A DNA stretch of 64,000 nucleotides. Source: Eledone cirrhosa (lineage: Eukaryota). The DNA is taken from assembly GCA_964016885.1 (NCBI GenBank), contig OZ024742.1, forward strand, positions 175,336,001-175,400,000. Reading direction: 5' to 3'. The notes beneath the pieces were generated by a model that had not been told where the DNA came from, did no database searches, and saw only the letters and a list, made by a program, of their open reading frames with translations. Within the stretch, counting starts at the first letter, position 1, and the number at the start of each line of letters is the position of its first letter. Positions 1 to 40,621 of this stretch are shown in pieces. The translations under genes were made by a program, and so were the position numbers.

Positions 1-318
1 TTGACTTTAACTTTGACATTTTCGCTCTGGGCGTCCAGATTTTTCTCTCCCTTCCACTCTCCAAGGATTCCGCAGTCCGTCCGTCCATCCATCCATCCAT
101 CATATATCGAAGGCAACCGGGCAAGCGATAGTATAGGCCTCTGGCTTATGATTTGGTCCGCGTAATAATAATAATGGTGATGCGTGGGGGTGGGGGTGGG
201 TGGCTCTGGCTTATAATAATGGTGGTGATGCGGGGGGGGGCTCTGGCTTATGATTGGTCCACGTATTAAGTATGGTGGCGTGTGGGGGCGGGAGGGAGGG
301 GTGTGGGGTAGCTAGCTG

Positions 319-9300: not shown

Positions 9301-12115
9301 TAAGGAATTGGACGAATACGATAGAATTAAGATAGAAGGTTATGAATGTTTAACAAGCGATTTAACAAAAAGCAAAACTGCAAGATTTGTTCTGTTCAAT
9401 ACGACAAAAACACCGTATTTAAACCTTAAATAGATAACAAAAAAATACAGATTTCGGATTTTGCGAGATTGGATGTTTGTTTGGACTGTGTACGGAATTG
9501 AGCGTGGAAATGGAGAGAAGGATTGTACTTTACGGTTTACATGAGTCCATCATAGAAATAATTGAAGCAAAGTGGATAAACATGAAGGAAAACTTATCTT
9601 ATATATATATGTGTGTGTGTGTGTGTGTAGCTAAGCGAGAGATAGAGGGGAAGAAAGAGAGGGGGGGGGGGGGAGATAGTGGCTGACCGCAGCCCCCTCG
9701 TGGAGAAGCAGGAGGGTGAAGGGGTGGATCGGCTTTTTGACTTTCAAGTAGCATACTATATATATTTAAAGTAATTTATAAGTAGAATGTGGAGGATTTT
9801 GTTTTTTTTTGTTTGAGAATACGATAGAATTAAGGAATTGGACGAATACGATAGAATTAAGATAGAAGGTTATGAATGTTTAACAAGCGATTTAACAAAA
9901 AGCAAAACTGCAAGATTTGTTCTGTTCAATACGACAAAAACACCGTATTTAAACCTTAAATAGATAACAAAAAAATACAGATTTCGGATTTTGCGAGATT
10001 GGATGTTTGTTTGGACTGTGTACGGAATTGAGCGTGGAAATGGAGAGAAGGATTGTACTTTACGGTTTACATGAGTCCATCATAGAAATAATTGAAGCAA
10101 AGTGGATAAACATGAAGGAAAACTTATCTTATATATATATGTGTGTGTGTGTGTGTGTAGCTAAGCGAGAGATAGAGGGGAAGAAAGAGAGGGGGGGGGG
10201 GAGATAGTGGCTGACCGCAGCCCCCTCGTGGAGAAGCAGGAGGGTGAAGGGGTGGATCGGCTTTTTGACTTTCAAGTAGCATACTATATATATTTAAAGT
10301 AATTTATAAGTAGAATGTGGAGGATTTTGTTTTTTTTTTGTTTGAGAATACGATAGAATTAAGGAATTGGACGAATACGATAGAATTAAGATAGAAGGTT
10401 ATGAATGTTTAACAAGCGATTTAACAAAAAGCAAAACTGCAAGATTTGTTCTGTTCAATACGACAAAAACACCGTATTTAAACCTTAAATAGATAACAAA
10501 AAAATACAGATTTCGGATTTTGCGAGATTGGATGTTTGTTTGGACTGTGTACGGAATTGAGCGTGGAAATGGAGAGAAGGATTGTACTTTACGGTTTACA
10601 TGAGTCCATCATAGAAATAATTGAAGCAAAGTGGATAAACATGAAGGAAAACTTATCTTATATATATATGTGTGTGTGTGTGTGTGTAGCTAAGCGAGAG
10701 ATAGAGGGGAAGAAAGAGAGGGGGGGGGGGAGATAGTGGCTGACCGCAGCCCCCTCGTGGAGAAGCAGGAGGGTGAAGGGGTGGATCGGCTTTTTGACTT
10801 TCAAGTAGCATACTATATATATTTAAAGTAATTTATAAGTAGAATGTGGAGGATTTTGTTTTTTTTTGTTTGAGAATACGATAGAATTAAGGAATTGGAC
10901 GAATACGATAGAATTAAGATAGAAGGTTATGAATGTTTAACAAGCGATTTAACAAAAAGCAAAACTGCAAGATTTGTTCTGTTCAATACGACAAAAACAC
11001 CGTATTTAAACCTTAAATAGATAACAAAAAAATACAGATTTCGGATTTTGCGAGATTGGATGTTTGTTTGGACTGTGTACGGAATTGAGCGTGGAAATGG
11101 AGAGAAGGATTGTACTTTACGGTTTACATGAGTCCATCATAGAAATAATTGAAGCAAAGTGGATAAACATGAAGGAAAACTTATCTTATATATATATGTG
11201 TGTGTGTGTGTGTGTAGCTAAGCGAGAGATAGAGGGGAAGAAAGAGAGGGGGGGGGGGGAGATAGTGGCTGACCGCAGCCCCCTCGTGGAGAAGCAGGAG
11301 GGTGAAGGGGTGGATCGGCTTTTTGACTTTCAAGTAGCATACTATATATATTTAAAGTAATTTATAAGTAGAATGTGGAGGATTTTGTTTTTTTTTGTTT
11401 GAGAATACGATAGAATTAAGGAATTGGACGAATACGATAGAATTAAGATAGAAGGTTATGAATGTTTAACAAGCGATTTAACAAAAAGCAAAACTGCAAG
11501 ATTTGTTCTGTTCAATACGACAAAAACACCGTATTTAAACCTTAAATAGATAACAAAAAAATACAGATTTCGGATTTTGCGAGATTGGATGTTTGTTTGG
11601 ACTGTGTACGGAATTGAGCGTGGAAATGGAGAGAAGGATTGTACTTTACGGTTTACATGAGTCCATCATAGAAATAATTGAAGCAAAGTGGATAAACATG
11701 AAGGAAAACTTATCTTATATATATATGTGTGTGTGTGTGTGTGTAGCTAAGCGAGAGATAGAGGGGAAGAAAGAGAGGGGGGGGGGGGGGAGATAGTGGC
11801 TGACCGCAGCCCCCTCGTGGAGAAGCAGGAGGGTGAAGGGGTGGATCGGCTTTTTGACTTTCAAGTAGCATACTATATATATTTAAAGTAATTTATAAGT
11901 AGAATGTGGAGGATTTTGTTTTTTTTTGTTTGAGAATACGATAGAATTAAGGAATTGGACGAATACGATAGAATTAAGATAGAAGGTTATGAATGTTTAA
12001 CAAGCGATTTAACAAAAAGCAAAACTGCAAGATTTGTTCTGTTCAATACGACAAAAACACCGTATTTAAACCTTAAATAGATAACAAAAAAATACAGATT
12101 TCGGATTTTGCGAGA
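319..12115. repeat. Tandem satellite array, ~530-bp unit, 22 full copies plus a ~134-bp partial copy
   Basis: Unit starts GAAGGTTATGAATG at 319, 850 and so on. The 22 repeated ORF starts are 528-533 bp apart. Copies appear to differ only in G-run/T-run length and one AG loss near 8600. The array ends at GCGAGA 12115. Confidence 0.99.
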
Positions 12116-14890: not shown

Positions 14891-16544
14891 AATAGAGAGC
14901 CCTTTGTATCTTTAACTGAGCATAGAGAGCTCTAATGGAAGTGTGTTATGAAAAGGGATTGTAGTTGAGAGGTGGTTACACAATATGATGTGAAACGTGT
15001 CAAATTCTGTGCTGTTACTTTCAGAATGATGTACTGTATGATAGTGGTCATGTTAACAAATGAAAAACATTAGAGGTAATATAACACTGGGAACTACTCA
15101 ATACACACAACTATCAGAGAAGTTCAGTTTTATATGAAGAATTTGTTTTTTAACTGTTGGAAATAATTAGAGATTGTAAAACTGAAGGTAAATCAGGAAC
15201 CAAAAGAAATTAATCAGAAATGATCAGCTGATAAATAGTTTTTGTCAAAGAGATAGATAGTGAAAATAATGTCGATGACTGGTTCTGTTAGGAGGCCTCA
15301 TTCTTCAGAGAGACATCATTTGATTACTGTAAGAACAATAGAATACAGAGAATTTAAATTCGGTTATTCCTGCGGCCTTGTTATTCACAAGAGTATTCAC
15401 TTTGTGATGTTATTTTGGAGAATAAACTTCACAATTTCAATATTCAGGAAAAATAATATAATACATATTTAAAAAGTATATTCAACAGAGATAGAAAAAT
15501 ATTCTTGAGCAACACATGAAATTTATATTTCACTAGAATAATAGCATTATTTATATATATATTACACAACAGACATGTGCATATAGAAATATAATAGGTG
15601 TCTGGAGCTTTAATATCCCTTTATTTGAAAGTTATTACTTGTTAATATATGTATACTTGTCATCTTAATGGAATTTGAATGATAATTTAGTTATTTCAGA
15701 GAAGAAAAAAGAAAGAGATGAAAATATATATTGCATGCTAACCCTTAACACTCTGTTTCATGTTTTGGGTCTTTTTTTTTAGTATATATTTGTTTCCATA
15801 TTTATCTGTGCTTTTCACCAACTGCATTTTTTTCCAGTAAAATGAATTGTTTTTTGCGATATGTTTTAGAAAATATCTGCTGATAAAATTACTTTTTATT
15901 TATTTCAGTATATGAAACACATTCTTTTCTATTCTTTTCAGCTTTTTCACAGATTTAATTGAATGATTGAAATTTTCTGTTTTGGAAAACACTTTCCTAA
16001 ATTTCTTGTGTGCAGTAATTTCAGCAAAACAGAAAAAGATGTTTTTTTTATGTTTGATTTAAAAGGATATTCATGACAAAACATGTTGAGATTATTTCTT
16101 AGACATAATGTCAATTGTGATGTAAATTGGTGGCATCCACTTTTCTTTAATAGACATTTTAAAATGAAACCCATTTTTTTTTATCATTTTAAATATTTTA
16201 TATTTAATAATTAGTTTTATTTTTGTTTTAATTTTCCATCTATTTGTTTTGGCTTTTTTGTTGTTGTTAATAATATTTGTTATATTGAATGTTGATATTT
16301 TATCTGTAGAAGAAAGAAAACCTAAAACGAAACCAAAAGAAGAAGAATGAAGACAGCCCCACTAAAACATTCAACTGCTGGGATTTTCAACAATTAGCAA
16401 ATATCTTGCTTGTAAATATTTTAAAAGAAAATATATGGAGTGGTTTGAAGAAGCTTGTATTAATCTTTCATTCAAAAACTTACTATATATTTATTCATTG
16501 ATATAAATATTATTTGTTATATATCATACCTATATTTAACAATA

Positions 16545-16930
16545 AGCAGAATCATTAGAGTATCAAACAAAATATCTTTGAGGATTTAGTTATGGCTATA
16601 TATATGCTGAGTTCAAATCATACCCAAGACAATTTTCCTTTTCATCCTTCCACAGTTGTTAAAATAAATTACAAATGAAATACTGATGTCATGCTAATTA
16701 ATTATATACAATCTCAAATTCCTCAACTGTATAAAGTACTAGTGAAGTACTGATGTCAAATTAATTGACTCTACACACTCATTCCCAATAATATACCTGT
16801 CATGTTCATCAAGCTGGATATCACCTTAGTTTTATTGGTACATGAACTGAACCCTTGACAACAAAGTTCTAGGGTGAATTTAATTGATTATAAACACTCT
16901 CAAATTCCTCATACAGTGTCAATATTAGAA
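16545..16930 (+). mobile_element. Degenerate SINE family A with a locally duplicated 3' part
   Basis: GCAGAATCATTAGAG..CTGAGTTCAAATC..CCTTTTCATCCTT..TAAAATAAA; AATTAATT..CTCAAATTCCTCA recurs. Confidence 0.55.
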
Positions 16931-18299
16931 ATCTATAGTCAACACTCGATATTTCAATAACATATTGAACGTTTTAGATGATTAACACTTTGTATTGAAT
17001 GTGACTCAACTTACAACAGGAAGCATTTTATGGCCTACTTCCCTGCTTAAACTAGAGTTAGCCTTGCAGGCACCATGGCAGATTTCCTACTCATCATGGG
17101 GTCCTTTATTGAGGTAGTTTTACAGCTGGATGTCCTTACTGCCAGCACTTTTAAATACCCATACAACATACCAGGATATAGTGTACCTATTAAATATAAC
17201 AGTACAATGTCAGTCCTTATATTTATAAGTCCAGACAGTCAATATGAAGTTCTTTAACAAAATATTAAGTTCAATCTCTACTAAAGTGGATTTTTTCTCA
17301 ATATGAATGGCTGTTAGAACTCATTATCATCTTAATCTTAATCATGGCTAGTAAAACCTGCCAGGTAAAAATATTCGTTCATCATGTACTTACCTTTGTT
17401 ATTATGACATTACTGCATTGTTGAATTACACTTTAAACTAGCTATGTAACTTTCACACCCACACTCTCTCTCTCTTACAGTATTTCTCTCTCAACAGCAA
17501 CTTTTCACACATATATGTAGGAGGGAAAATGGGCAGGAGTGAAAAGTTGTTGTTGAAAGAGAGAGAGAGAGAGAATGTGTGTGTGTAAAAGATAGATAGG
17601 AGGTAGAGTGATGACAGCCTAAATATGAAAGTGCTGACAAACTTGCGCTTTAAAATCTTTTATTAAAGTCTGTTGTCATGACACCACTCTCGCAACTTTT
17701 GCTCCTCCCTTCTTCCCTCCTACATAAATATTTTGATGAACAGACAGATTGAGATCAGCTTGTCTTAAAATATAGATTAGTTTATGCCCATTTTTCCATG
17801 CTAGCATGGCATGGGCAAGATTCTTTGACGATGTATTCTAGAACCAGATGTCAACACCTACTTGTCTATTTTTTTGAAGTGAGGTATTGATCTCCACGCA
17901 TCGATCCACTGAGCTGCACAGTGTCAAATGCCAAAACATAAAAACATGGAGTCGAATACACACACGTGGCCTGTTGGTTGGGGCATTAGGCTGACAAACA
18001 TAATTTTGTGCTTTGATAGAACATTGTATTATTGATCAAGTCACTTCATTCCTTCAGTTCATTCAACTGAAGATTAATATGAGTAGTAGCTGGGAATTAA
18101 CATAGCAACAGATGAGTTTTCTATCCAGAAGAGAGTCTTGTGGTCTCAGTCTCTTTGTGCCACATGAAACAGGGATAATCTCTTGTCTGATGAGCCTCTA
18201 TGTTCAAGAAAAACTATAACTTTTAACATACTCAGTTTAAGCAGTAGATAGAATAAGAGGATTATCTTCACATATACACCAACATATAACATTGCATAT

Positions 18300-18430
18300 T
18301 TGCAGAATCATGAACACGTCAGATAGAATGCTGCATGGTATTCATTCTAATCCTTTGTCCTCTTTGACTTCAAATCCTGCTGAAGTCAAATTTACCTTTC
18401 ATTCTTTCAAGGGCCATAAGAAAATTACCT
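18300..18430 (+). mobile_element. SINE family A fragment
   Basis: GCAGAATCATG..TTCAAATCCTGCTGAAGTCAAATTTACCTTTCATTC. Confidence 0.6.
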
Positions 18431-20089
18431 GTCTAGTTGATTGTTCCTCTATATTTTTTTCTCACTTCGACTCTATTACTCTTGCTCTCTCCTTTTCTGG
18501 GGGAAATTGGCTATATTCACACCAAGAGAAGGGATGCACTCTGCCAGGTTTCAAGTAGCTAAGAAATGACATATATCATGACAAAACACCTATGACTCCA
18601 CCAGCAGTTGCACGTCCATACTTACATACATACTTAAACATATTAAAATCCCACCCTGTTATTTAATGGTAACTAGCAGTCTTACATCATTAATATATTG
18701 AAATATCATATAGAGAATTTGCTTTTCTGAAATTTCAATTCTTTTGTCTGGAAATCAATCATATCAGTCATGTTATACATTGAACTTTACCATCTCATAG
18801 CAACAATTTTCATATCCTGACCATAAACAGTTATAATTCTATAAATATTAGTCAATCATATTCTTGTAAGTATAATATCCCGAATCAGTTATTTAGCTAT
18901 GTGACAGAGATACCTGTGATAAGGTGAAAGCTAAAAGATTTATACAAGTATGATTCTCATAAATATGATTTTTTACTTTTACTCTGATATTCACCACGGA
19001 ATATAATGATGTCTTGTCCATCCTATGGAGAATGAGAAAGTTATAAATTACATTTTGAGACATATAACTTTATTGCGATGGCTTCGACAGCATTAGTGAA
19101 TGTGATCTTTGGTCATTTATTATGTGGAGTTGCATATTATATTGTAATCTATAAGTCTAGATATACTTACATTGCATGACAAACTTGTCTTTAATGTCTC
19201 CTCTTGCCAGGTAGTGTAAACCTACTCATTAAATATATTTGATATAAATTACTACAGAACAGACACTGACTTTGTCACTAAAGACACAAACACAATCACA
19301 AAACCACAGTCACAAATATACACTCATACACATAATAAACACACTAATAAACAGACTTTCACAAACGTCCACTCACTCAATCACATGCTTCCTTGACTTA
19401 ACAGAAAAACAGTTGCAAGCTTATCTTGTATAATCTGTATTTATGTTATAGTGTAAATGTATAAAATAGATTATATTATGTACGCCTGTGAAATGTCTGT
19501 TTAGACTGTTTTGTTATGACATGAAAATAAATTGGTTTGGTTGATATGGTTGTCACCTCTCAGATGCAATGTTTTCATATTTTGGCATAAAAGAAAATAC
19601 CTTCTTTACACTATAAGATCAAACTACACTGAAATGGAGTGAATCTTATGATGTGACTATAAGTGAATTGAAATAGAGATTTTAATGGCGCTATATTGTC
19701 AACAATAACAACAACTATATTTAGCTTCGACACACGGTCAGAAAGCTGAGGTATTAGTCAATTAAAATCGACTTTGGTACTTCACTAGTATGTTATCAAT
19801 CTCAGAAGAAAACCTGGCATATGGGTATCAATGCTTCAGATTAGCTTTGCAATGTACATCCCCTTATTCCAGCCATGTGGCCTATTTTTCCAAAACAATT
19901 TAAACTTACAGTTTAGTAAGCAGATGAATTAAAATTTTTCTTTGACATCACTGAGAAAATGACTAAGACTACATGTTCGATTACACAGTCTACCCAAATT
20001 ATGACGCCCTATCATTGTCCACCACATTGCTATATGCCAATGACATTTAGTAGTTTATTTAGTGATTCCAAAACCACCTCCTCCTCCTT

Positions 20090-21140
20090 CTTGTGATGTT
20101 CATGAGAGCAGAGTCCTGAAACATTCCTTCCAGCAGGAACTGTCAGAAGCAGCTGTCTTCAACTGATCCAGTTAGATCCCCAAGCGAGAGCAGCCAACCT
20201 CACAGATCTTATCTGAACATCTTGCTCAGGGTCTACCCCTGGGTCTCCTGATGGTTGGTTTATCTCATAAAATCTGTCCAGCAATTCCTTTCTGAGATAT
20301 TTTACCACATGTCAGAGCTGTGATCTTTAAATTTGGTGAAGTAGTGGCTCTACCTGGAGTGAGCCTCTGATCTCTGAGCTTCACACTCTATCAAGTAATG
20401 TTACTCCAAAGACGAATCAGAGGAACCCCATTTCAGTCACTTGCATTTGTGATCGTATTCATTCAGTCATTACCCAAGATTTATGAACATGGCCCCAAAC
20501 TCCACCTGCTTCAGTGGAACTCCATTTCACATGTAGAGTGCAATGTGCAGGTTTCCTTTAGAGGATGAGTGTCTCAGTTATCTGAACACAAATACTCAGG
20601 CATACATATAGAGACATGAGGGCAGCAAGAAACTAAGCATTTATCTCATACTCTTGCAGAATCTTCCACACCAGGTCTCGAGGAATGCAATTATATGCCT
20701 TTGTGATGTCTACAAAACACAAATATACCACTTGATAATACTCCTACAATTTCTCAAAAACCTGCTGCTGTGCTGCATCTAGGGCAAAAACTGTATTGTT
20801 CATCTGCTAGATTTGTCTTGACAATTTCCCTGTATCCCTTTGCCAGACTATTAGCATATACTTTACTGGAGAAGCTTAACAAGAGTTCCCTTTCTAATTG
20901 GAACAATCTCTGTTGTCTCATATTTTGAAAATTGAGCTTATCATTCCTGATTGCCTAGGTTCCTTTCCAGAGATCCAGGCCAGCCAGCACACATGAGTCA
21001 GCCAGAGAATACCTTCCCTATTTAAGGATTTTGACATCTCAGGCTGGATTTCATCTTCAATGTCCTTGTCACATTTGAGCTCTTGTGACTTCAGTCTCTG
21101 TGAAAATAGCTGCCACTCCCAAATGCACCTCGTGTACATC
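20090..21140 (-). mobile_element. Heavily decayed RTE-clade LINE, RT and 3' fragments
   Basis: Minus-strand remnants FVDITKAYNCIPRDLVWKILQEY and GVTLLDRV*SSEIRGSLQVEPLL, with many stops. Confidence 0.7.
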
Positions 21141-23179
21141 AGCAGATGCTGTTGTGGTCAGATTTAAGAGAGCTGTTAAAGTATTATGAAGATAAAGCAT
21201 GCTCGCGCTGTAAAATCCTTTGTGTGGGCCGCAGGTGTGCTTGTAAAGGGCTGCATATCTGACATGCCTGTTCTAGAGTATACACATGCAGCATATCCAC
21301 CTCACATTTATCTGTGTTTATTTTAACCTTTTCATTATCATATTTCTAATGAAAGTCTGTCTAAAATTTTCAAATAATTTTGAAAATAATTTGGTGAGAT
21401 CTGTTAATACAACTCTCTTTCTAATTATGAACCTGGTGTTTAGAACATATTTTCACAAATGTTCTTTAAAACTATGATGGAAAGTTTTAATGTAAAAATG
21501 AACATTACAAAACAATGAATTTTGTATCATACAACCAGGGACTGTTTTAGGCAGATTGTTATCAAAAGGATTAATGGAGTAGATAACACCTAGTAACAAT
21601 AAAACATTTGTTTTTCATTTTTATTTGAGAAATAATTTCTTAACATTCTATAGATATATAAATAAAATAACATATTTCATATCTTTCAGCTACATATATG
21701 TTTTTCCAATAATAGCTGTTCATATTGCAATTAGGGTCATATTATTCAGTAGTCTTGTAGTGAATAGGGAACCCAACAATTTTTTTTTTTTTTTTTGTTT
21801 CCGTTTTGCTGTAGTCAGATGAAAGATTGGTGTTATAGAAAGGGCCTGAAATATTTTAAAGCCTAGGAGCCTGAGAATGGGTTGATACATCACTAGTTAC
21901 AATCATATTTCAGTATTATTCTGTTTGAAAACTACCACAATGGGAATTGGATAGTAAATGATAAAAATGCGATAACAATGATGTTGAGGTGTCATCTAGC
22001 ATTACTTTATAGGTTCCTATATTTGGGTATAAAATCCCTTCATCAGAACATTAGTAGAAGAATCTAGTTTGGGGCTGTATATTTTTGGTCATTCTTAAGC
22101 TGCCATTTTTTTCAAATATTGAGGAGGAGAATGAAAAGAAGGAGGAGGAGGTGTACATAATGTAATTTAGATTAGTTTCCCAGCAAGGCTTTGGCCATGC
22201 CATAGCACCTGCAATATTTGATCTTATCAACCCCAGTACTTAGTTTTTACAGCTGGTAATTATTTTAACTCTTAACACCCTGCAATGATTTAATAGTCAC
22301 AGTGCAGTTTTGTACTTTTCAAGAACGTCTTGCTAATATAGTTTCATATTAAAAGATATTAGTTTTTGTTGAAATGCTTCATCATGGAAAATGAGAAGAT
22401 ACAAACATAAACACAGGCATACACACACACACACATGAGAGGTTTCTGCATTTTCTGTTTACCAAATTTCACTCATAAGTCATTGGTCAAACTGAGGCTA
22501 CAATACAAAATATTTGCTGAAGGTAGTATGTAGTTAGAGTGAACCCAAAACCATGTTTTTGGAGAACATTCCTAAACCACACAGCCATGCTTGCTGAGGT
22601 TTTTAACAAAAACAAAAAGAAAACAAAAACATTATTACCACAAATGTATACAGCAAAAATTTTCTACCATTCCATTAACATTCACTCCATCTTTACATCA
22701 TTTTATCTATCCTGAATAACAAATAGAGTTTATTCATTCCAGAAAATTATTTGCACAAGACATGATCATTAGAATAATGTTTAAAGGTTCTTTAAAAAGT
22801 TATGGCTTGTCCAAGCCAGATGGAGAGATTTATAAAGAGAGCTGGCACTTTAAAATGTTGTAGCGATACTGGACAATTATTAGTTCTGTTGTTGAAACAC
22901 AAAAGACTTCTTCTTCGGATATTTAATGACTGTCTAGAAGCATTAATTCTTGACAAACTGATGCAATCAGTCAAATATGCCAACATTGAATTCTGATAAC
23001 AATTATTCTCCATCTCATAAATTTTGACTTTTAACATTTTACATTACATATGTATATTTTCCTAAGCACATGGATACACGCTCACACACACAAATATACA
23101 TACACTCACATAGACAGGCACACATACACATACATGTTTAAATATTTATACACACATATATGCATATTCACACACACAG

Positions 23180-23219
<40 letters not shown>

Positions 23220-23240
23220 TGAGACTAGTAAAATGAGGTA

Positions 23241-23328
23241 TCCTCTTGATAAGTTGGCAGACCTCGCAAGGACTCTATATCTTTGATATATTGTTTTTGT
23301 TTATGCCACGAAACTACGTAGTCGAGGA
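23241..23328 (+). ncRNA. Type I hammerhead ribozyme motif, U3-A8 core variant (copy 1)
   Basis: TCCTC / TTGATAA / GTTGGCA..TGCCAC / GAA / ACTACGTAGT (palindromic stem III) / C / GAGGA. Confidence 0.7.
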
Positions 23329-23831
23329 ATTTAGGAGCAGTTTAGGTATGATACATTTTATTACTAATTATATCTAAATGTTTCTTCTCTCTTCATAATG
23401 TATTTTTAACTCTGATACTGGTTCAGTCTGGTTCAAACTGAATTGGTCTGTCCCAGTCATTCATTGAGCAACATCGGTGAAGTTGGCACCCTTAACTCAC
23501 AGTTGGGTGCGGATGCATTCATGTATATATGTGTGTGTCCGCATGTATCTGTGTGTTTCTAAATATATTAATAACTCCCTCTGGTCGAGCAATCTTTGAA
23601 GTGTGGGGACAACTGGAAAGCTTCCATTACTCATACTTCTCGCCTTCTTCACTACCTCTTCTACGGCCTCGATATGAATACCCCCTCCGCCTCCGTGGTA
23701 TTTTCTTCGTGGTTATAAGAGGCTTAGCTCTGTTTCTCGACCGTTATATCGCGTGACTATCTCCCCCTCCGCCTTTTGGGATTCTTTCTCACGTCGTGTA
23801 GACGCGTTCTTGAGACTAGTAAAATGAGGTA

Positions 23832-23919
23832 TCCTCTTGATAAGTTGGCAGACCTCGCAAGGACTCTATATCTTTGATATATTGTTTTTGTTTATGCCAC
23901 GAAACTACGTAGTCGAGGA
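23832..23919 (+). ncRNA. Type I hammerhead ribozyme motif, U3-A8 core variant (copy 2)
   Basis: Identical to 23241-23328. Confidence 0.7.
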
Positions 23920-24150
23920 ATTTAGGAGCAGTTTAGGTATGATACATTTTATTACTAATTATATCTAAATGTTTCTTCTCTCTTCATAATGTATTTTTAA
24001 CTCTGATACTGGTTCAGTCTGGTTCAAACTGAATTGGTCTGTCCCAGTCATTCATTGAGCAACATCGGTGAAGTTGGCACCCTTAACTCACAGTTGGGTG
24101 CGGATGCATTCATGTATATATGTGTGTGTCCGCATGTATCTATGTGTTTC

Positions 24151-24188
<38 letters not shown>

Positions 24189-24218
24189 ACTATCATATCC
24201 TCACACGAGATACAGAAA

Positions 24219-25527
24219 ATGCCAACAAAAACGGATACAACCCTCATCAACTCAAATGAAGAGATCCTACAGGAACTCAAGAAAATCAACACCAACCTAT
24301 CTTTGCTGGTCGACAAACTTGACTCCACAAATAAGGAAACCGCCACCGGATACAAACCCTCCGAAATCAGCGACAAACTCCAAAACCTTTGCGATACTAT
24401 CCTAACTATGTTCACTACTACCAACCCAGGAAAAACCAACGAAGAACCATGTGAGATTGATTCACACAAAATGAAAATTCGAACAATTCCAAAATGGAAC
24501 AAATCCCTCAGAGACAGAAAGTTCTCATTCTGGAAGATGATACAAAATCACAACAAAGCAGAGATATATGAAAAATGGCTTAACTCAACCCCTCTAACTC
24601 TCCCCCGTAAACTACAAATAAAGTCCATTCCAAATGAACCCGAACCTCAAAGACACCTTAGGGAAAGAATGGCATTGGAAAAAATGAAGACAGAAATTGA
24701 ACTTCTTAAACTGAGGGCCCAAACAAATGAGGAAAAAATCAAAACCATCGATGAAGAGATCCTCCTGGAAATCAACAACACAACTGAAGGCCCCAAGGTA
24801 GAGAAGATCTCCAAATTATGGAAAGGGGACTGCAACAGAGAAGAACTGAAATCCCTTCAACGCTGGGAAAAAAAGTGCCGCTTGGTTCCTACACTATGAA
24901 TCGACTTTTCAAACGGATTACACCTCCAATAACCCGTTCATAAAAATAGGAAAACCCATAACTGAACCGCACAACTTCTCAAACCCCCAAGCCTCTATCA
25001 AACGAAGAAGGAAGCACCACACCGAAGATGAACTTCCCAAACTCGCTACCATAAGAAGGAACAAAAACCCAAGAAATCTTCTCCCCCAGAATGACATTTA
25101 CAACTTTCCCCCTTCAAGGAGACACCATACCAAATCACTCAACTACTACGCGGATGCCTCATCGTCAAACATAGGGAAAAGATACCACCGCCATGATAGA
25201 TGTAGCAACTTCCCCGCTTCAAGGGGACAGCAAGGTAATTACCATTTTCTCAACTCTCGCTTCCACAATACACAACAAACCCATCCCACACGATACAACC
25301 AACAACGTAGGCCACTAATAACACCACAATACAACATGGCACATAGAAACACACACCCATACTCGCAGTACAGGAACACCCCATTCAATCTACAACCACC
25401 AACCCGAACCACATTTTACAACAACAAGGAATATAACAAACACAGGAGACCACTTAACATCAGCAGACAACCCCTCTACCCCAACCATTTTTTAGACACA
25501 GCACACAGATACAGGCAAACAAAATAA
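24219..25527 (+). pseudogene. PLE ORF1: coiled-coil N-half and basic N/Q/R/H-rich C-half, ~435 aa with one frameshift
   Basis: The 226-aa ORF (LRERMALEKMKTEIELLKLRAQTNEEKIKTIDEEI) joins a frame that is stop-free from 24874 to TAA 25527 if one A is removed from the A7 run at 24868-24874. Confidence 0.75.
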
Positions 25528-27809
25528 CACAAGACAGGGAGGAGAAACCGATAGTAATAAAAATTATCAATCTAACTAGTGCAGAACCAACACCCAACCT
25601 TATCAACTTACTCTCCAAAGGTCTTAAATTCACACCGACCCCACTACGTCCTAACTACTATGAAATGAAGGAAGACATCACAGACTTCTGTAGAAAGTTA
25701 CGACTTAGTGAACAACTATTCGACCAGTACAATGAGGATGAATCATTAGCCAGAAATAGAAGCAATTACACCCCTTCAAAAGGTAGAAATAAAATCCTGG
25801 ACGAATTCTGTGAACGCATCACAAACTTCCCTTACCAACACTTGCACAGACAAAAACACAAGCCAAACCTCAACAAGAAAGAATGGGAAGAATTAAATAG
25901 ATTGAAAACCGACAGAACCATTACAATTAAAGAGGCTGATAAAGGGAGTACAGTAGTCCTAATGGAGACATAATTCTATATCAACTTAGCGCTCTCCACT
26001 TTGGAAAACGAAACATACTACGAAAAGGCTGAACACTACAATCAACAAAATTATGAGAAACCTAAAAACTCTAATCAACCAATACAAAGAAGGACTCACT
26101 AACAAGGAATTCAGCTTCATCACAGACTTCACAAGTAAATCCAGCCTTTTCTACGGTATCCCTAAAGTACATAAAAGCGAATCAATAAGTAAGGCATGCA
26201 AGGAAGCCACAGACATAGTCATCAATGTCCCCTCACCCAATGATCTCAAATTAAGACCTATAATAGCAGGCCCCGCTTGCGAAACGCACCGTCTTAGCAA
26301 CTTCATTGATACCCTTCTCAAACCCTTCCTCAAGCACATCAAAAGCTATATAAGGGACGACCTAGATATGCTCAATCACCTCCCTAATATGCCACTTCCT
26401 GAACAAACCCTACTAGTGACGTTCGATGTAGTCAACCTATACTCCAACATCCCCCACAACCTAGGAATAGAAGCTATCCAATTCTGGCTGGATACTTTCC
26501 ACAATGAACTCCCACAACGCATCAAAAAAGAATTCGTGATAGAGGGACTCAAATTTATCTTGGAGAACAATTACTTCGTTTTCAATAACAAACCCTACAG
26601 GCAGAAATCTGGGACCGCTATGGGAACGAAAACAGCCCCGACTTATGCCTACCTAGTCATGGGATACCTGGAAATCACCCTCTACACTAAAGTCCTAAAC
26701 AAATTTGGAAACACCCTCCACTTACACATTGAAAGGAACTGGAAGCGATATCTAGATGACTGCTTCATCCTTTGGCACGAAAACATCGAAAAACTTAAAG
26801 AATTTCACACCCTTATAAATGGGCTCAACACAAATATTAACTTCACGATGGAATACAGCCATCAACAACTTCCCTTCCTCGACATCCTCATTAAGATCCA
26901 TAACAAAAAAATAGAAATAGACATATACTACAAGCCCACAGACTCCAAGCAATATCTCCCCTTCAACTCTTGCCACCCTAGACACGTTAAAATTAATATT
27001 CCCTACAACTTAGCCAAGAGAATCTGTACTATAGTCTCCAATAAAAACATCTGCTACTTACGGCTACAAGAACTAAGGACACACTCATAGGCAGGGACTA
27101 CCCTGCATCACTAATTGACAATGGAATCCAACGTGCCCTAAAACTCAGTACCCAGGACCTTACACACCCTAAAGTAAATCAACCAAAACTAAAAGCTCTT
27201 CCATACATCTCCACACACAACCCCCTCAACAATGAGGCCTTTGACACCATCCTCCAGAACATCCCTGTATTGAAAAAGGACCATAGAATGAACCAAATTC
27301 TACGAACACACGATATCATAAAGAGCAAAAGACAATCCAAGTCAATGAAAAACATCTTAACACATGCCAAAGTACTGCCAACCACAACAACGAAACCCAC
27401 AGTAAAAAAATGCGATAGACCCAACTGTGGCATTTGCATCAACCTAATAGAGGGTTCGGAATTCTATTTCAAAGATGGACAACGTTTTATAGTAAAACAC
27501 AATTTCACATGTGCATCGGAAAATCTAATATATGTATTAACTTGTTCAGGTTGTCGAGAACAATACATAGGCCAGACCAAAAATAGCCTCCGCCAACGCA
27601 TGACTGTCCATAGATCCCAAATTAAAATACGGGAATACAGGAACATACCACTGAGTGAACACATTGATACCTGTGCCGCCCAAAATCATCCCAACTTCAG
27701 AATATTTCCCCTCTACAAATTTAAAGATAATGCCACCCACACCCAGCGCATCAGCAAGGAATATTACTTCATTAACAAATACGGACCCCGTCTAAACACT
27801 TCTCCCTAA
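25488..27809 (+). pseudogene. PLE reverse transcriptase plus GIY-YIG endonuclease ORF (1 stop, 2 frameshifts)
   Basis: IINLT..LLSKGLKFTPTP, IKEADKG, PKVHK..LRPII, TFDVVNLYSNIP, QKSGTAMGT, RYLDDCF, linker CDRPNCGIC, LIYVLTCSGCREQYIGQT..RMTVH..LSEH. Lesions are TAA at 25971 and indels near 26050 and 27078; the second copy has the missing A near 31850. Confidence 0.95.
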
Positions 27810-28134
27810 GACGAACCCACAACATACACACGTCAACATACATACCTACATCAGCACACATCTCTACCCACATATAAACACAATGACATACGTAAACACA
27901 CATGCTCTATGGTGCAACACAAACAAATATATGTGCATATATATGTGTATATATATGTATATATGTATATATATATATGTATATAGTGAATATATGTATG
28001 TGTGTATATATATATAGTGAATATCATTTCACACCTTTTCTTGTTAAGATTTGTGATGTTCTATTAAGAGTACCGATTTTACTGAAAAAATCGAATAATG
28101 TACACCATTTTACCAGGGGGAAAAAAATACTGGT

Positions 28135-28205
<71 letters not shown>

Positions 28206-28489
28206 TATATATACACACACACATACACACGCGTACATCAACATACAAAGAGACTTATATATACACACACACACACACACACGCACTTCTCCGTATAAGA
28301 CAAAAGCAGAAAAATATCTTTTGACATGCTAAAATACCCCCCATTGCTTTCAGACACATTCTTACTGACCATCCCTGCCACCACGAATTACTCTGCTATA
28401 CACACACACACACACACACACTTATCTCAATAGCCATTTGACACACATAGCTGCTAACCAATATCACAACATCGAACACCTTACTACTA

Positions 28490-28564
<75 letters not shown>

Positions 28565-30267
28565 ACACACATATTTGTTGTGAAAGAGTCATTTCTCAAT
28601 CTTGGCGCAAAACCAAATTTTTATTCACATGACCTCTACCGACCAATCAAAATTGTTTTGACCACAAGAATTGTTGCTGGGGCCACTTTTTTAACATAAA
28701 AACAGTCTTGGCGCAAAATCAATTTTTTACACTCACATGACCTCTACCGACCAATCAAAATTGTTTTGACCACAAGAAATTTTGCAACACCAAAGTAACG
28801 CTGGAGCCACTTTTTTAACATAAAAACAGGTAGAATTCCCAAAACTAATCAGATCAGAGCAAACAGCACGGACACTCTATCTCAAAATTATTTTTGAAAA
28901 GCATTTAGAAATGCGCAACCGGTAAAAACTTAAAAACTTAAAACCACAACTGAATACTAACCCATACAATCACTAATACTCTTTTATTCCTAATTAAACC
29001 ATTTTTCAACTGTGAACAATTTGTCAGCATTTTCTATTCCGTTTACCAATATATATATATATATATATACACACACACGCATATACATATCATATATACA
29101 TATCATATATACATATCATATATACATATCACATATACATATCATATATTATCATCGATTGATGTTTGTTTTGCTCACTAGCATGCACACACCCATACAT
29201 ATACATACCATATATATGTAATGTTTAACATTGAAAATATAAGAAAAACATACATTTATGCTTATATAGACACATTCGGATATGAATAAATATATAAATA
29301 TCTGTTGGTATAATGTCTTATATTGAACTTGAATCATCTCTACACCTCATGAGAAAAATATAAATATGGAGAATATCTCTGCTTGTCCTTTATTTAATAC
29401 ATCTTTTCCTGACATCCCCCTTTTAATAGACTCCCTGTCTATTATTCGAAACCTTTTCTTTATTAACTCTTAACACCATTTAGTGATTTAGCAGAAGATA
29501 TCTAAAAATGGTTGTTTATTATGTTTGTTGTATCTTTACTAATAAACAGATTGTTGTGGAACTTTTCAGTATTGAATAAACACGTTAGTTGTTTTTTTTT
29601 TATACAGTCTTATTGCTGTTTTATAATTTTCAAGAATGTCTTTTTAATGTGATTTGTTAATTCAAATGTTTATAGTAACTTTAATGGTGGATAGATCATT
29701 GTGAAAAGTTGCATAAACTAATATAAAGACTTTAATTTTTTATATAATGCAATCAAAGTGCTGCTTCATACATTTCAAGAATGACTTGCAAGTGAGGTAT
29801 TATGTGGTGAGGTATTATGTGCAGTCTTACAGGACATTAAAAATTGAAATAAAAACTGTTGATTTATAAAAGGTTTGATGTAAATGCATGTAGGTATATA
29901 TGAATGAATTACACACAGAACTAAATAAATGTTATAAATACATGAAAAGTAAAAGAGCATGGAAATAATCAACAGATTTTAATGTTTATTTTTCATACTT
30001 GCACAGGTTACACAGGCTATTACATTATGAGGCTTGACAGGTCAGGGACGCCCATTTTGCTCATATGATTCAGGTTTTTATCTTGGTTGAATGTTCTTCC
30101 CAAGAGCAGCCACATTAGAGCATGTACTGGGAATTGTTTCTATGGTAGCAGCGCTGCCACCTTACAAGAAGGGCTGGGTGTATTCTTTTGGGGGGCTCTA
30201 GAATATATATATAATTTTTTGCCGATTTCAGTCCTTTGATTATGGTAATGCTATATATATATATATA

Positions 30268-30757
30268 GGTAAAAGGAAAAGAAAATGCTGACAAATTGTT
30301 CCCAGTGAAAAATAGTTTAATTAGGAATAAATAAAAATTAGTAATATATTGGTTAGTATTCAGTTTTGGTTTTAAGTTTTACCAGTTGCGCATTTCTAAT
30401 GCTTTTCAAAAATAATTTTGAGATAGAGCGCCCGTGATGTTTGCTCTAATCTGATAAGTTTTGGAAATTCTACCTGTTTTATGTAAAAAAAAAGTGGCTC
30501 CAGATGTATGAAAAAATTCTTGTGGTCAAAACAATTTTGATTGGTCGGTAGAGGTCATGTGAATGTTAAAAATTGATTTTGCGCCAAATATAGGTTTGTC
30601 TCAGCTGATTGAGAAGTCACTGAAAAATAAGTCTTTAAAGACAAATATGTGTGTGTGTGTAGTAGTAGTAGTAGTAAAGAGGTTCGTTGTTGTCATAATG
30701 GTCAGCAGGGATGTGTGTGCGAACCGCAGCCTGTTGACAGTTCAAATGCCTATTAAG

Positions 30758-30809
<52 letters not shown>

Positions 30810-33196
30810 CAGAGTAATTCGTTGTAGAGGGATGGTCAGTAGGAATGTGTCTGTACGTGTGTGGGTGATATTTTAACATGTTAAAATATATTTTTCAGCT
30901 CTTGTCTTATACGGAGAAGTGTGTGTGTGTGTCTGTATATGTCTCTTTGTATGTTAATGTACGCGTGTGTATGTGTGTATATATATATGTGTGTGTGTGT
31001 ATATATGTGTGTGTGTGTGTGTGTGTGTGAGAATGTGTGTGGGTGGACCAGTATTGTTGTGATAATGGTAAAAATGGTGTACATTATTCGATATTTTCAG
31101 TAAAAACGATTCTCTCAATAGAACATCAAAAACCTTAATAATAAAAGGTGTGAAATGATATATAGTATTGGCATAATACCAAGGTGTGTGTGAGTGTCCA
31201 GATTGTACGTACTGCAAGGGGAATCCATTAGGCCTTGCCGTATTGGAATACATGTGTACAAATATGTATGTGCCCATCAGTGTGCAATGCATGTGTGCGT
31301 ATATGTATGTATGTGTGTTGGCACGTTTATATCTATAGACATCAAAAGGTATGCACATTTGTGTGTATTTGTGTTGCACCATAGAACATGTGTGTTTACG
31401 TATGTCATTGTGTTTATATGTGGATAGAGATATATTCTGATGTAGGTATGTATGTTGCACTAAAGTACTAAACATATTTGGAAGCACTCTCCACTTACAC
31501 ATAGAAAGGAACTGGAAGCGATATCTACATGACTGCTTCATCCTTTGGCACGAAAACAACGAAAAACTTAAAGAATTTCACACCCTTATAAATGGGCTCA
31601 ACACGATTATTAACTTCACGATGGAATACAGCCATCAACAACTCCCCTTCCTCGACATCCTCATTTAGATCCATAACAAAACAATAGAAACAGACATATA
31701 CTACAAGCCCACAGACTCCAAGCAATATCTTCCTTTCAACTGGTGCCACCCTAGACACGTTAAAATTAATATTCCCTACAACTTAGCCAAGAGAATCTGT
31801 ACTATAGTCTCCAATAAAAACACCTGCTACTTACGGCTACAAGAACTAAAGGACACACTCATAGGCAGGGACTACCCTGTATCACTAATTGACAATGGAA
31901 TCCAACGTGCCCTAAAACTCAGTACCCAGGACCTTAGACACCCTAAAGTAAATCAACCGAAACTAAAAGCTCTTCCATACATCTCCACACACAACCCCCT
32001 CAACAATGAGACCTTTGACACCATCCTCCAGAACATCCCTGTGTTGAAAAAGGACCATAGAATGAACCAAATCCTACGAACACACGATATCATAACGAGC
32101 AAAAGACAATGAAAAACATCCTAACACATGCCAAAGTACTGCCAACCACAAGAAAGAAACCCACAGTAAAAAAATGCGATAGACCCAACTGTGGCATATG
32201 CATCAATCTAATAGAGGGTTCGGGATTCTATTTCAAAGAAGGACAACGTTTTATAGTAAAACACAATTTCACATGCGCATCAGAAAATATATGTATTAAC
32301 TTGCTCAGGTTAATACAGAATAATACAGACAAAAAACAGCCTCCGCCAACGCATGACTGTCCATAGATCCAAAATTAAAATACGGAAATACAGGAAAATA
32401 CCACAGAGTGAACACATTGATACCTGTGCCGCCCAAAATCATCCCAACTTCAGAATCTTTCCCCTCTACAAATTTAAAGATAATGCCACCCACACCCAGC
32501 GCATCAGCAAGGAATCTCACTTTATTAACAAATACGGACCCCGTCTAAACACTTCTCCCTAAGACGAACCAACAACATACACACGTCAACATACATACCT
32601 ACATCAGCATACATCTCTATCCACATATAAACACAATGACATATGTAAACAGATATGTTCTATGGTGGAACACGAACATACACAAATTTGCATACCTTTT
32701 GATGTCTATAGATATAAACGTGCCGACACACACACATACATATACCCACACATGCATTGCACACTGATGGGCACATACATAATTGTACACAAGTATTCCA
32801 ATACGGCAAGGCCTAATGGATTCCCCTTGCAGTACGTACAATCTGGACACTCACACACACCTTGGTATTATGCCAATACTATATATCATTTCACACCTTT
32901 TATTATTAAAGTTTTTGATGTTCTATTGAGAGAATCGTTTTTACTGAAAATATCGAATAATGTACACCATTTTTACCAGTATCACAAATATGCTGGTCCA
33001 CCCACACACACACATTGTCTCACACACACATACACACGCATACATTAACATACAAAGAGACATATACACACACACACACACACACACTTCTCTGTATAAG
33101 ACAAGAGCTGAAAAATATCTTTTAACATGTTAAAATATCCCCCACACACTTACAGACACATTCCTACTGACCATCCGTCTACCACGAATTACTCTG

Positions 33197-33267
<71 letters not shown>

Positions 33268-33759
33268 TCTTAATAGGCATTTGAACTGTCAACAGGCTGC
33301 GGTTCGCATACACATCCCTGCTGACTATTATGACAACAACGAACCTCTTTACTACTACTACTACACACACACACACATATTTGTCTTGAAAGACTTATTT
33401 TTCAGTGACTTCTCAATCAGCCGAGACAAACCTATATTTGGCGCAAAATCAATTTTTAACATTCACATGACCTCTACCGACCAATCAAAATTGTTTTGAC
33501 CACAAGAATTTTTTCATACATCTGGAGCCACTTTTTTTTTTACATAAAACAGGTATAATTTCCAAAACTAATCAGATTAGAGCAATCATCACGGGCGTTC
33601 TATCTCAAAATTATTTTTGAAAAGCATTAGAAATGCGCAACCGGTAAAACTTAAAACCAAAACATAATACTAAACAATACTATTACTAATTTTTTCTTAT
33701 TCCTAATTAAACTATTTTTCACTGGGAACAATTTGTCAGCATTTTCTTTTCCTTTTACC
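30268..33759 (+). mobile_element. Second, 5'-truncated copy of the same PLE (31458-33759) preceded by an inverted copy of its 3' region (30268-31457)
   Basis: 31458 CACTAAAGT corresponds to 26685 of copy 1. 30268-31457 is an imperfect reverse complement of 32587-33759. The RT and EN parts are decayed (RYLHDCF, stops). Confidence 0.93.
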
Positions 33760-33842
33760 AATATATCATAACTCGTGTGTTACACCTCTATTCTGTTAAA
33801 TATATATATATATATTATATATATAGTATATATATAATATAT

Positions 33843-37384: not shown

Positions 37385-40110
37385 ACCATTTATGCTTTTT
37401 GTACGTTCACGAATATTACTATTACACATCCAACGGAGCATGCAAGCTTCGTTTCTCTCCAGTTTCCGTAGATCCTCTGCGCACAAGGCCCATGCCTCAC
37501 TGCCATGTAACATCGCTGTTCGAATTCAGGCATCATACAGCCTGCCTTTTATTTTTAGAGAGAACCCTTTAGCGGCCAATAGTGGTATAAGCTCTCTGAA
37601 CTTTTTCCATCCCATTCTGACTCTAGCTACAGTACTTTCAGAGCACCCTCCACCACTGCTGATTTTGTCACCCAGGTAGCAGAGGTGTCCACTATTTCTA
37701 TAGAACCATGTGGGCAATGGAATGAGCTAGTATTCTGTGGGCATTTGCTGCTATTTATTGCACCATAGCACCGGCCACATATAAAATCTATATTCTTAGT
37801 TAGCTTACCTGTGATCCCACTACATCTTTTATGCACCCATACTTTGCATTTGGGACTAAAATGGAGTTTCTGCCTTCTCCTTTCCTACACACTGAGCATG
37901 GCCATTTCCCAGATGAGACCAGTGCCTTATTTTCCTTCCTGCATATTAGGACTTCAGTCTTAGACAAGTTAACATTAAGGCCTTTTGATTCTAAGCCATG
38001 CCTCCATGTTTGGAATTTCTTCTCTAGTTCAGCTTTGATTCGGCTATGAGCGCTAGATCATCTGCGTATAGAAGTTCCTATGGGAAACCGGTATTGAACT
38101 CCTCCGTTATAGCTTGGACTGCGATAATAAATAGGAGGGGGCTCAGGAAGGAGCCCTGATGAACACCAACTTTTACGCTAAACTCTTCACTATATTCGTT
38201 GTTAATTCTAACCTTGCTGACTGTTTCTTTATACATGGTTTGTATAGCTCTCACTAGCCATTCATCTACACCTAGTTTTCAAAGAGCCCACCAGATAATG
38301 GAGCGGGCACTCTGTCAAAGGCTTTCTCCCGGTCTACAAAAATAAGTAGAGGGGTTTACTTTTAGCTAGGTACTTCTCCTGTCGTTGTCGTACAATGAAG
38401 AGAGCGTCTGTGGTACTTTTACCTGACACAAACCCGAACTGCATTTCATCTAGATTAATTCGCTCTCTGATTAGTTGCGCTATTACTTTTTCTGTGACCT
38501 TCATGACCTGGTCAATTAATTTAATGCCTCTATAGTTTCCTCTATCTGGGGCGTCTCCTTTACCCGTGTAACAGTTAATGATGATGCTGCTACGCCAGTC
38601 CTTTTGTATGACCCCATTCTGTATAACTTGGTTTACTATCCGGGTGACCATAGTGTGTACCACCGTTCCAGATGCTTTCAGCATTTCAGCAACTATTTCC
38701 GAAGGCCCAGTCGCCTTGCCCGTCGTCATATCTTTGATTGCCTTACTTATTATACTACCTTCAACTTGCACTGCTGGTCCCTCTATTGGATAGATGTGGG
38801 GCAGGCTGTCTTCTTCCATTTATTCTCCTCATTTAGTAACCTTTCGTAGTGACACTTCCAAGCTACCTTCTTATCAGCGTCAGTGATAGCAAGTACACCA
38901 TCATCATTACGGACACACTTCTCCCCGACAATATCACGGTTCTCCTTGACACATTGTCTAGCAATCCTGAACACCTCACGTTTTTGGTCCTCGCGTTGTA
39001 GAACATGCTTGAACTGTCTTTCCTCTGCTTCCCTTCTTGCAAAGTACACTTGTCTCCTAGCTTCCTTCCTGGCTACTTCATAGTCTTCTCTACTTCCCCC
39101 ATCCCGCCATACTTTCCAAGACTGCTTTTTGCCCTTGATCGACTCCTCCACCTTACTGTTCCACCACCAAGTTACTCTCCTCCTGCCTATAGGTCTGCTC
39201 CAGCCACAGATTTCATCTGTCGCCTTCAGCAGGTTAGGTTTCAGGAATTCCTACTGTTCCTCTATATCGTACGACTTTAACTGCTCTTCCTTAAGGTCAA
39301 AAGGATCAAGTAATATGCTTTTAAATTTATTACTGGCTGTGGGGTCCTTTAACTTCCCTATTTTTCTCCTAAGGATAGTCCTCCTCTGTTGTCGAATACG
39401 TCTTGTCCTGACTATGAAGTCGCTAACTATGAGGCTATGTTGGGGTGTGCATTCTTCATCGGGGAGGGATTTAGTGTTTACAACAGACACTCTGTCTCGT
39501 CTTCTGGTAAGGATATAATCTATCTGACTGGCGTGTTCCCCTGATCTATAGGTGATCAAGTGATAGTCTCGTTTTTTGAAGTTTGTGTTACATATAGTTA
39601 GATTATTTGCGTCACAGAATTCCAGGATTCTGGAGCCTTCCTCATTTCTAGTACCAAACCCATAGCCTCCATGGGTTCCGTCATAGCCGTCACAGTGTTG
39701 TGCAAAGTGACCATTTAGATCGCCAGCAATAATTATATAGTCACTGTCGGTTATTTGGGAGGTAATGAGCATTAACGACTCATAGAATCTGTCTTTTATA
39801 ATGCCAGGCAGTCCTGGTTGGGGTGCATACGCAGATATTATTGTCACAGTAGTTCTATTGAGGACAAGTCTTATTTTAATTATTCTGTCGTTCACTCTAT
39901 TTACGTCTATTATCTTATCTACCCATTTTTCTGCTAGCATGATTCCTACTCCACCCAGCCCATTGTCATTTCCCACCCACAAAAGCTTATCGCGTCGTTT
40001 TTTACCCACAATGAATCTAGCAGACCCACCCCTCCACCTGGTCTCTTGAATACAGCAAACATCAACCTCCTTACGTTCAAGCATCTCTACAACCTCATTA
40101 GAGCGACCTA
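37385..40110 (-). mobile_element. RTE-clade LINE (APE endonuclease, RT, PHD finger), disabled, bounded by (TA)n at both ends
   Basis: DVCCIQETRW, SAYAPQ, AGDLNGH, QIDYIL (APE); GNYRGIKL, QFGFVSGKSTTDALF, GVHQGSFLSPLLF, LYADDL (RT); several frameshifts and stops. Confidence 0.95.
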
Positions 40111-40186
<76 letters not shown>

Positions 40187-40621
40187 GGAAATCAGTAAAA
40201 TCGAATCTCTGGCGGTTTGCAAGTAAATTCGGCCTACTTATATGAAGTGATGAGTTAGCAAAGCACTCGATAAGATAGGTCTCAGAGTTATAACATACGT
40301 TTAAATAGCTTGACAAATCGAACATTGTGGTAGGCTAAACTAAAACACAATATATACCAAAGTAACGATAAAACTAATCAGGTTGAGAAAAGTACACCTG
40401 GACAAATCAAACGGGCGTTTGAAGTGTTTCTCTGACTCCTAAATCAAATATCAGACTTACTTGAATGGCAAGGTCGTGGTATTGGTGACTGAACAGAGGA
40501 CTCAGTTTATCAACAGGTTTTCGTTCTGCTTAGAATCAGGAGTGATAAAATATGTTGCCGCTCTTATGGCTGCTAATCGAATCTATAGTTATCACGTGTT
40601 AATTCCGGCAAGGGAAATAAC

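Follow-up and report, generated by a model that had tools for sequence, protein, structure and literature searches.

What kind of element occupies positions 23219..24159 of the forward strand in this window (the whole 64,000-nucleotide stretch of Eledone cirrhosa DNA that was analysed), where two repeats each carry a hammerhead motif and a coding PLE lies next to them? The sequence-only reading had described a retrozyme-like cassette built on two tandem ribozymes. That description has to be revised, as the copy is a truncated concatemer: a single, 5'-truncated arm of 1.59 head-to-tail turns of a 591-nt unit, in which the two 350-nt repeats, differing by one base (23551/24142), are the terminal overlap. 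The 3' end of the insertion is the distal of two fixed sites in the unit (unit position 350). The unit has no coding potential (longest stop-to-stop frame, 86 aa), and a pair of GC-box-like motifs within it (23681..23773) is a candidate internal promoter. The features of the insertion and its unit are listed here.

23219..23809, forward strand: full unit, non-coding; unit position 1 is 23219
23199..23218, no strand: (TA)n target, 5' side
24160..24184, no strand: (TA)n target, 3' side, dividing the insertion from the neighbouring coding PLE
23681..23691 and 23763..23773, forward strand: two identical 11-nt GC-box-like motifs, conserved in an old subfamily
23324..23914, forward strand: 591-nt RNA predicted between the cut sites from the hammerhead layout

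The 591-nt family is dispersed and multicopy, with thousands of genomic copies. A search of the species' own 3.0-Gb genome with the first 202 bases gave 897 candidates, and the 40 that were scored were each 100% identical. An older subfamily with a 587-nt unit gave 1,769 candidates in the same genome (40 scored), and the two subfamilies are about 22% apart. As a sample from some thousands, 136 loci were mapped, comprising 106 young (46 found by ribozyme match and 60 by end pattern) and 30 old loci. At the young loci, over half of the arms (91 of 171) are longer than one unit and run into the next, 33 exceed two units and the longest reaches 4.9; units within one locus are nearly identical.

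Each repeat has the type I hammerhead layout claimed for it, with a UUGAUAA core, a 10-nt palindrome, GUC and a 44-nt loop II.

23241..23328, forward strand: type I hammerhead motif 1 (U3 at 23246, A8 at 23251; predicted cut after 23323)
23832..23919, forward strand: type I hammerhead motif 2 (predicted cut after 23914, 591 nt beyond that of motif 1)
23260..23303, forward strand: loop II, 44 nt, with an internal hairpin that is kept between subfamilies while its sequence differs
23313..23322, forward strand: palindromic stem III, 10 nt, favouring a dimeric fold

In motif 1, stem I is formed by 23241-23245 (5' strand) and 23324-23328 (3' strand), the core lies at 23246-23252, stem II (23253-23259/23304-23309) has 6 bp with one bulge, GAAA occupies 23310-23313 and GUC terminates at 23323. 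Conserved core, Watson-Crick 3-8 pair, GAAA, NUH triplet and three stems are thus all present, and the 591-nt spacing of the cut sites upholds the proposed 591-nt RNA as the predicted unit. Standard searches were expected to overlook such a motif, and an Rfam scan of positions 15000-32000 at E<=1 did so, returning 21 matches to miRNA and snoRNA models and no hammerhead, probably because of the long loop II and the variant core. Only 1 of 57 ribozyme positions (a set chosen by the analyst from the structure) differs between the young and old subfamilies, against 130 of 534 positions elsewhere (Fisher p = 7e-6), which argues for selection on the ribozyme, cleavage itself being a prediction.

Whether the U3-A8 core is the family state or decay in this copy had been set as a test beforehand, and it is the consensus. 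A 29-nt core pattern with U3-A8 has 6,673 exact matches in the genome and its reversed control has none, so the motif is not a chance occurrence; with C3 and a free base 8, the same pattern has 5 matches, all C3-A8, and C3-G8 has 0. The subfamily of the window copy, marked by U at the stem II bulge, accounts for 757 matches, and the 100 among them that were listed are all U3-A8. At the mapped loci, U3-A8 is found in 235 of 237 cores of the young subfamily (106 loci) and 32 of 35 of the old (30 loci), and a genome pattern search for a sister that keeps this stem III and a short stem II region but has the canonical core returned nothing. The core is less surprising than it had seemed. Natural U3-A8 hammerheads have been reported, with in vitro activity cited (Perreault 2011, PMC3088659), and about 1,300 U3-A8 motifs are linked to Schistosoma Cercyon PLEs (Cervera and de la Pena 2014, PMC4209133); PLE-B, a coding PLE of this genome, carries the swap too. 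In openly accessible articles, supplements aside, no hammerhead was found under the description C3U plus G8A, nor any title relevant to a retrozyme in octopus. Going by the accessible text of PMC4209133 and PMC3088659, the family shares with these hammerheads the core covariation (stated there to be active in vitro), a palindromic stem III with a dimer model and a bulged helix II (as in D. virilis), and stem I-II pseudoknots are common among them; unlike them, the motif here belongs to a non-coding tandem unit and is fixed in two subfamilies, and both its stem III and its loop II are longer. In practical terms, thousands of such motifs in this genome escape both CUGANGA descriptors and Rfam.

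Could the repeat simply be the end of a PLE? The neighbour (24180-29060, forward strand) encodes RT and GIY-YIG, frameshifted, and has its own 3' end and a hammerhead-like motif near 28893, with further copies of that motif near 30409 (reverse strand) and 33616 (forward strand). Similarity between it and the insertion is absent, and the idea that the repeat belongs to the adjacent PLE as its terminal pLTR, also set as a test beforehand, is therefore dismissed: the two merely share one (TA)n run. The motif of the neighbour's family is U3-A8 with GCAA rather than GAAA in every copy among those listed when the base was left free; this is a fixed second core change, in either an active variant or a dead ribozyme. 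A second insertion of that family, two-armed (inverted) and 5'-truncated, lies at about 30250-33780. Elsewhere in the window, a strong and steady GC skew (0.39-0.47) extends over 12 kb (positions 1-12000), probably a satellite array, and fragments of APE endonuclease and RT mark a broken LINE at 38334-40237 on the reverse strand.

Two other PLE families of this genome were compared. PLE-A (L041:896-4846, L141-L150) is very young, with a 4,147-nt tandem period, two ends about 59 nt apart, a canonical hammerhead core and an ORF of more than 1,100 aa with an Asn-rich insert, which has no Pfam match at E<=0.1; of its 944 candidates, all 40 scored are 100% identical. PLE-B (L153, L154, L157) has an RT 60% identical to that of the window PLE, and its U3-A8 hammerhead (from L153) has 10,850 exact copies, many of them in small inverted pairs about 100 nt apart. 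More unrelated hammerhead motifs, some U3-A8, occur in the same (TA)n-rich stretches (L197, L224, L232, L239).

It is very improbable that the repeat serves as terminal pseudo-LTR in a coding PLE yet unseen. Xenopus retrozymes do derive from pLTRs (10.64898/2026.07.22.740005, accessible text), the loci examined are 136 among some thousands, and at one of them (L151) an arm is joined head to head to a 5'-truncated young PLE-A. However, the arms that outrun the unit enter another unit and never an ORF, no same-strand continuation of any arm into a PLE ORF was found at the 136 loci, and the unit shows no similarity beyond simple repeats to the adjacent PLE, PLE-A or PLE-B (PLE-A, -B and -C, the three families compared). 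An RT and GIY-YIG ORF between pLTRs, as in an autonomous EN+ PLE, is absent from the 591-nt family. The suggestion of a separate, non-autonomous family is thereby sustained, with no ORF in the unit and none joined in cis at any mapped locus. The L151 junction and a second one, where an arm abuts a PLE-B end (L232), were considered as pointers to the partner PLE and rejected, as later insertion with loss of (TA)n could give both.

We propose instead, with a probability of roughly 0.7, that the 591-nt family is a retrozyme moved in trans by a PLE RT-endonuclease that copies one RNA unit repeatedly, probably a circle. First, the insertions bear a PLE-like footprint, namely 5' truncation, an inverted copy, a tail at one end and a microsatellite target. 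Arms end in 3' at unit position ~185 or ~350, flush on (TA)n, and their 5' ends are scattered across the whole unit.

23404..23568, forward strand: "tail" of 165 nt, spanning from one fixed 3' end to the other (unit positions 185 and 350)

Junctions matching the end patterns number at least 2,400 at ~185 and at least 1,003 at ~350, counted at unequal stringency. Where arms are paired head to head, 56 of 60 pairs have one end of each kind (a duplicated pair, L202, being counted twice), none has two of the same kind, and 4 have one atypical end (L054, L198, L215, L244); unpaired arms divide into 25 and 23 by 3' end, with 3 others. The old subfamily has the identical two 3' ends, and the coding PLEs of this genome share this two-end layout, though their tails are shorter. 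A (TA)n target leaves any target duplication unreadable. In sequencing run X2 (four of six runs were examined, none of the six being catalogued as RNA), loose ends are present at 23403 and 23568, both fixed sites, and runs X1 and X5 each hold one contig of 620-621 nt spanning a single unit, which a circle or a tandem repeat would give alike. A fold-back origin of the inverted arm was rejected because neither arm class is the longer (25 versus 30 of 56). In openly accessible articles, supplements aside, no title or opening of an abstract described twin priming or rolling circles in PLEs.

The near identity of tandem units within a locus is also what an ordinary satellite would show, amplified at the DNA level and carrying a fossil ribozyme. 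We give this account hardly any credence in view of the dispersed insertions, the fixed 3' ends on (TA)n, the random 5' ends and the paired-end rule, to which are added the selective conservation of the ribozyme and the strand-biased A>G changes described below.

Traces of the template itself were sought in 105 insertions, 49 of them two-armed, after copies below 96% identity had been set aside. At sites covered by at least two units, 194 variants are present in all units, 116 in one unit and 2 in some units, and where family-polymorphic sites are covered by both arms, 80 of 82 agree and 2 disagree. On the sense strand, all-unit variants include 22 distinct A>G changes versus 10 T>C, in a unit with 132 A and 213 T, whereas one-unit variants include 8 A>G versus 25 T>C (contrast, p = 5e-4), with polarity set by majority rather than by an outgroup. 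None of the 22 A>G sites is preceded by G, compared with 28 of all 132 A (p = 0.003). ADAR disfavours an edited A preceded by G, and this absence fits its preference; the A>G pattern is what ADAR editing would give. Gene conversion as the source of the uniform arrays was thought unlikely because the 116 one-unit variants persist. Uniform parent arrays, for their part, would also yield uniform daughter arrays. At position 243 of the unit, both arms of one locus (L007) switch in register between two unit types, which is what copying of a dimeric template would produce.

An alternative is that PLE-driven insertion uses a long uncut multimer as template, or linear units joined by template jumps, no circle taking part and the hammerhead being either weak or active in some other context. 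The predicted cut (unit positions 104-108) is crossed by arms 264 times, but none of 170 arm 5' ends lies there; the genome therefore holds no trace of cutting, which would be expected of a closed circle and just as much of an uncut RNA. The alternation in L007 also favours a multimer, and in vitro, according to the accessible text of PMC11167929, hammerhead mutants of a PLE insert normally and the main substrate is unprocessed RNA. Against it, a linear multimer should carry its edits in single units, and the A>G excess is confined to all-unit variants; for this reason repeated reading of one unit is favoured, in the simplest case as a circle. Moreover, arrays would become shorter with every generation through 5' truncation, but 16 of 56 pairs consist of two arms that are each longer than one unit, and the ribozyme is strongly conserved. 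On balance, we regard the uncut template as unlikely.

How might the ribozyme of a circular retrozyme behave? The 93-nt motif has a fold z of -2.6, and its minimum-energy fold (-22.6 kcal/mol) is about 3 kcal more stable than the active one (-19.7). The earlier proposal that it cleaves as a dimer gains support in energetic terms, the palindrome duplex being predicted at -12.9 kcal/mol versus +1.5 for the stem III hairpin. As a circle, the 591-nt unit has a predicted fold z of -6.2 (against 30 shuffles), and a short leader has two predicted pairings.

23234..23239, forward strand: leader UGAGGU, conserved in both subfamilies, for which energies and pair probabilities were computed

The leader is predicted to pair either with loop II (23261-23266), forming a pseudoknot, or with the 5' strand of stem I, forming an inactivating hairpin. 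The loop II pairing (5-6 bp) is conserved between subfamilies, with change on one side only and no two-sided covariation. In the closed unit, stem I has a predicted probability near zero and the leader hairpin of about 0.9, which would protect the circle but may also mean low activity.

In our proposal, the cycle runs as follows. Tandem copies would be transcribed, and a pair of hammerheads, which probably dimerise via the stem III palindrome, would excise the 591-nt RNA. A host ligase would then close it, with the leader hairpin predicted to block the ribozyme, and the RNA would sometimes be A-to-I edited, as the A>G scars suggest. A PLE protein would cut both (TA)n strands, and reverse transcription would be primed at two fixed internal sites, one per DNA end. 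The expected products are arms of several units with random 5' ends, either alone or head to head, and this is the pattern seen in the sequence. A more specific version is that a PLE protein dimer, acting at one DNA break, primes each end at a different fixed site of one RNA circle, which the ribozyme has made and ADAR has edited, and carries out two rolling-circle reverse transcriptions on it, with editing driving the sequence evolution of the family; we put this at somewhat less than an even chance. In the accessible text of PMC11167929, a PLE has two internal RT start sites and cuts both strands in vitro. Mobilisation of animal retrozymes by PLEs via circular RNA is proposed, but not demonstrated, in the accessible text of PMC7229834 and PMC4209133, and 8 of 9 Xenopus retrozyme dimers are given as lacking cleavage in vitro (10.64898/2026.07.22.740005, accessible text).

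At the DNA level, the 591-nt family has the features of animal non-LTR retrozymes, and it appears to work like one. As far as the accessible text of PMC7229834 and 10.64898/2026.07.22.740005 goes, the resemblance includes non-coding tandem units with one type I hammerhead each, low GC, coexistence with PLEs and the mobilisation from circles by PLEs proposed there, and the unit falls within the 51-972 bp range of Li, Clavereau and Pollet 2026 (10.64898/2026.07.22.740005). By the same text, the family differs in its U3-A8 core, its structured 44-nt loop II, its predicted leader pseudoknot and a unit exceeding the 170-400 nt RNAs tested there, as well as, unlike most animal retrozymes, in a ribozyme predicted to be blocked in the circle. 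It also has no pLTR homologue in the three PLE families compared. For metazoan retrozymes, the accessible text of those two papers does not describe two-armed insertions with fixed paired ends, though the supplements may. EN+ PLEs (Craig 2021, PMC8557442; Frangieh 2024, PMC11167929; accessible text) share 5' truncation, partial tandems, an inverted 5' copy, a tail at a single end, (TA)n targeting and two internal RT start sites, but unlike them the family has no ORF, and its tail is 165 nt versus 30-40. In the PLE studied in vitro (PMC11167929, accessible text), the two strands show no difference in start site, whereas here the arms use different sites (56 of 60, none same-site). Plant LTR retrozymes, with two LTRs carrying a type III hammerhead, a unique centre and a 4-bp target duplication, are unlike this family, which has a type I motif, a concatemer and a (TA)n target.

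This young family yields exact predictions: one DNA end primed at unit position 185 and the other at 350, from a single template molecule, with edits copied into every unit. Its main value is mechanistic and lies in a testable route by which such an element may move, and the published in vitro PLE system suits these predictions.
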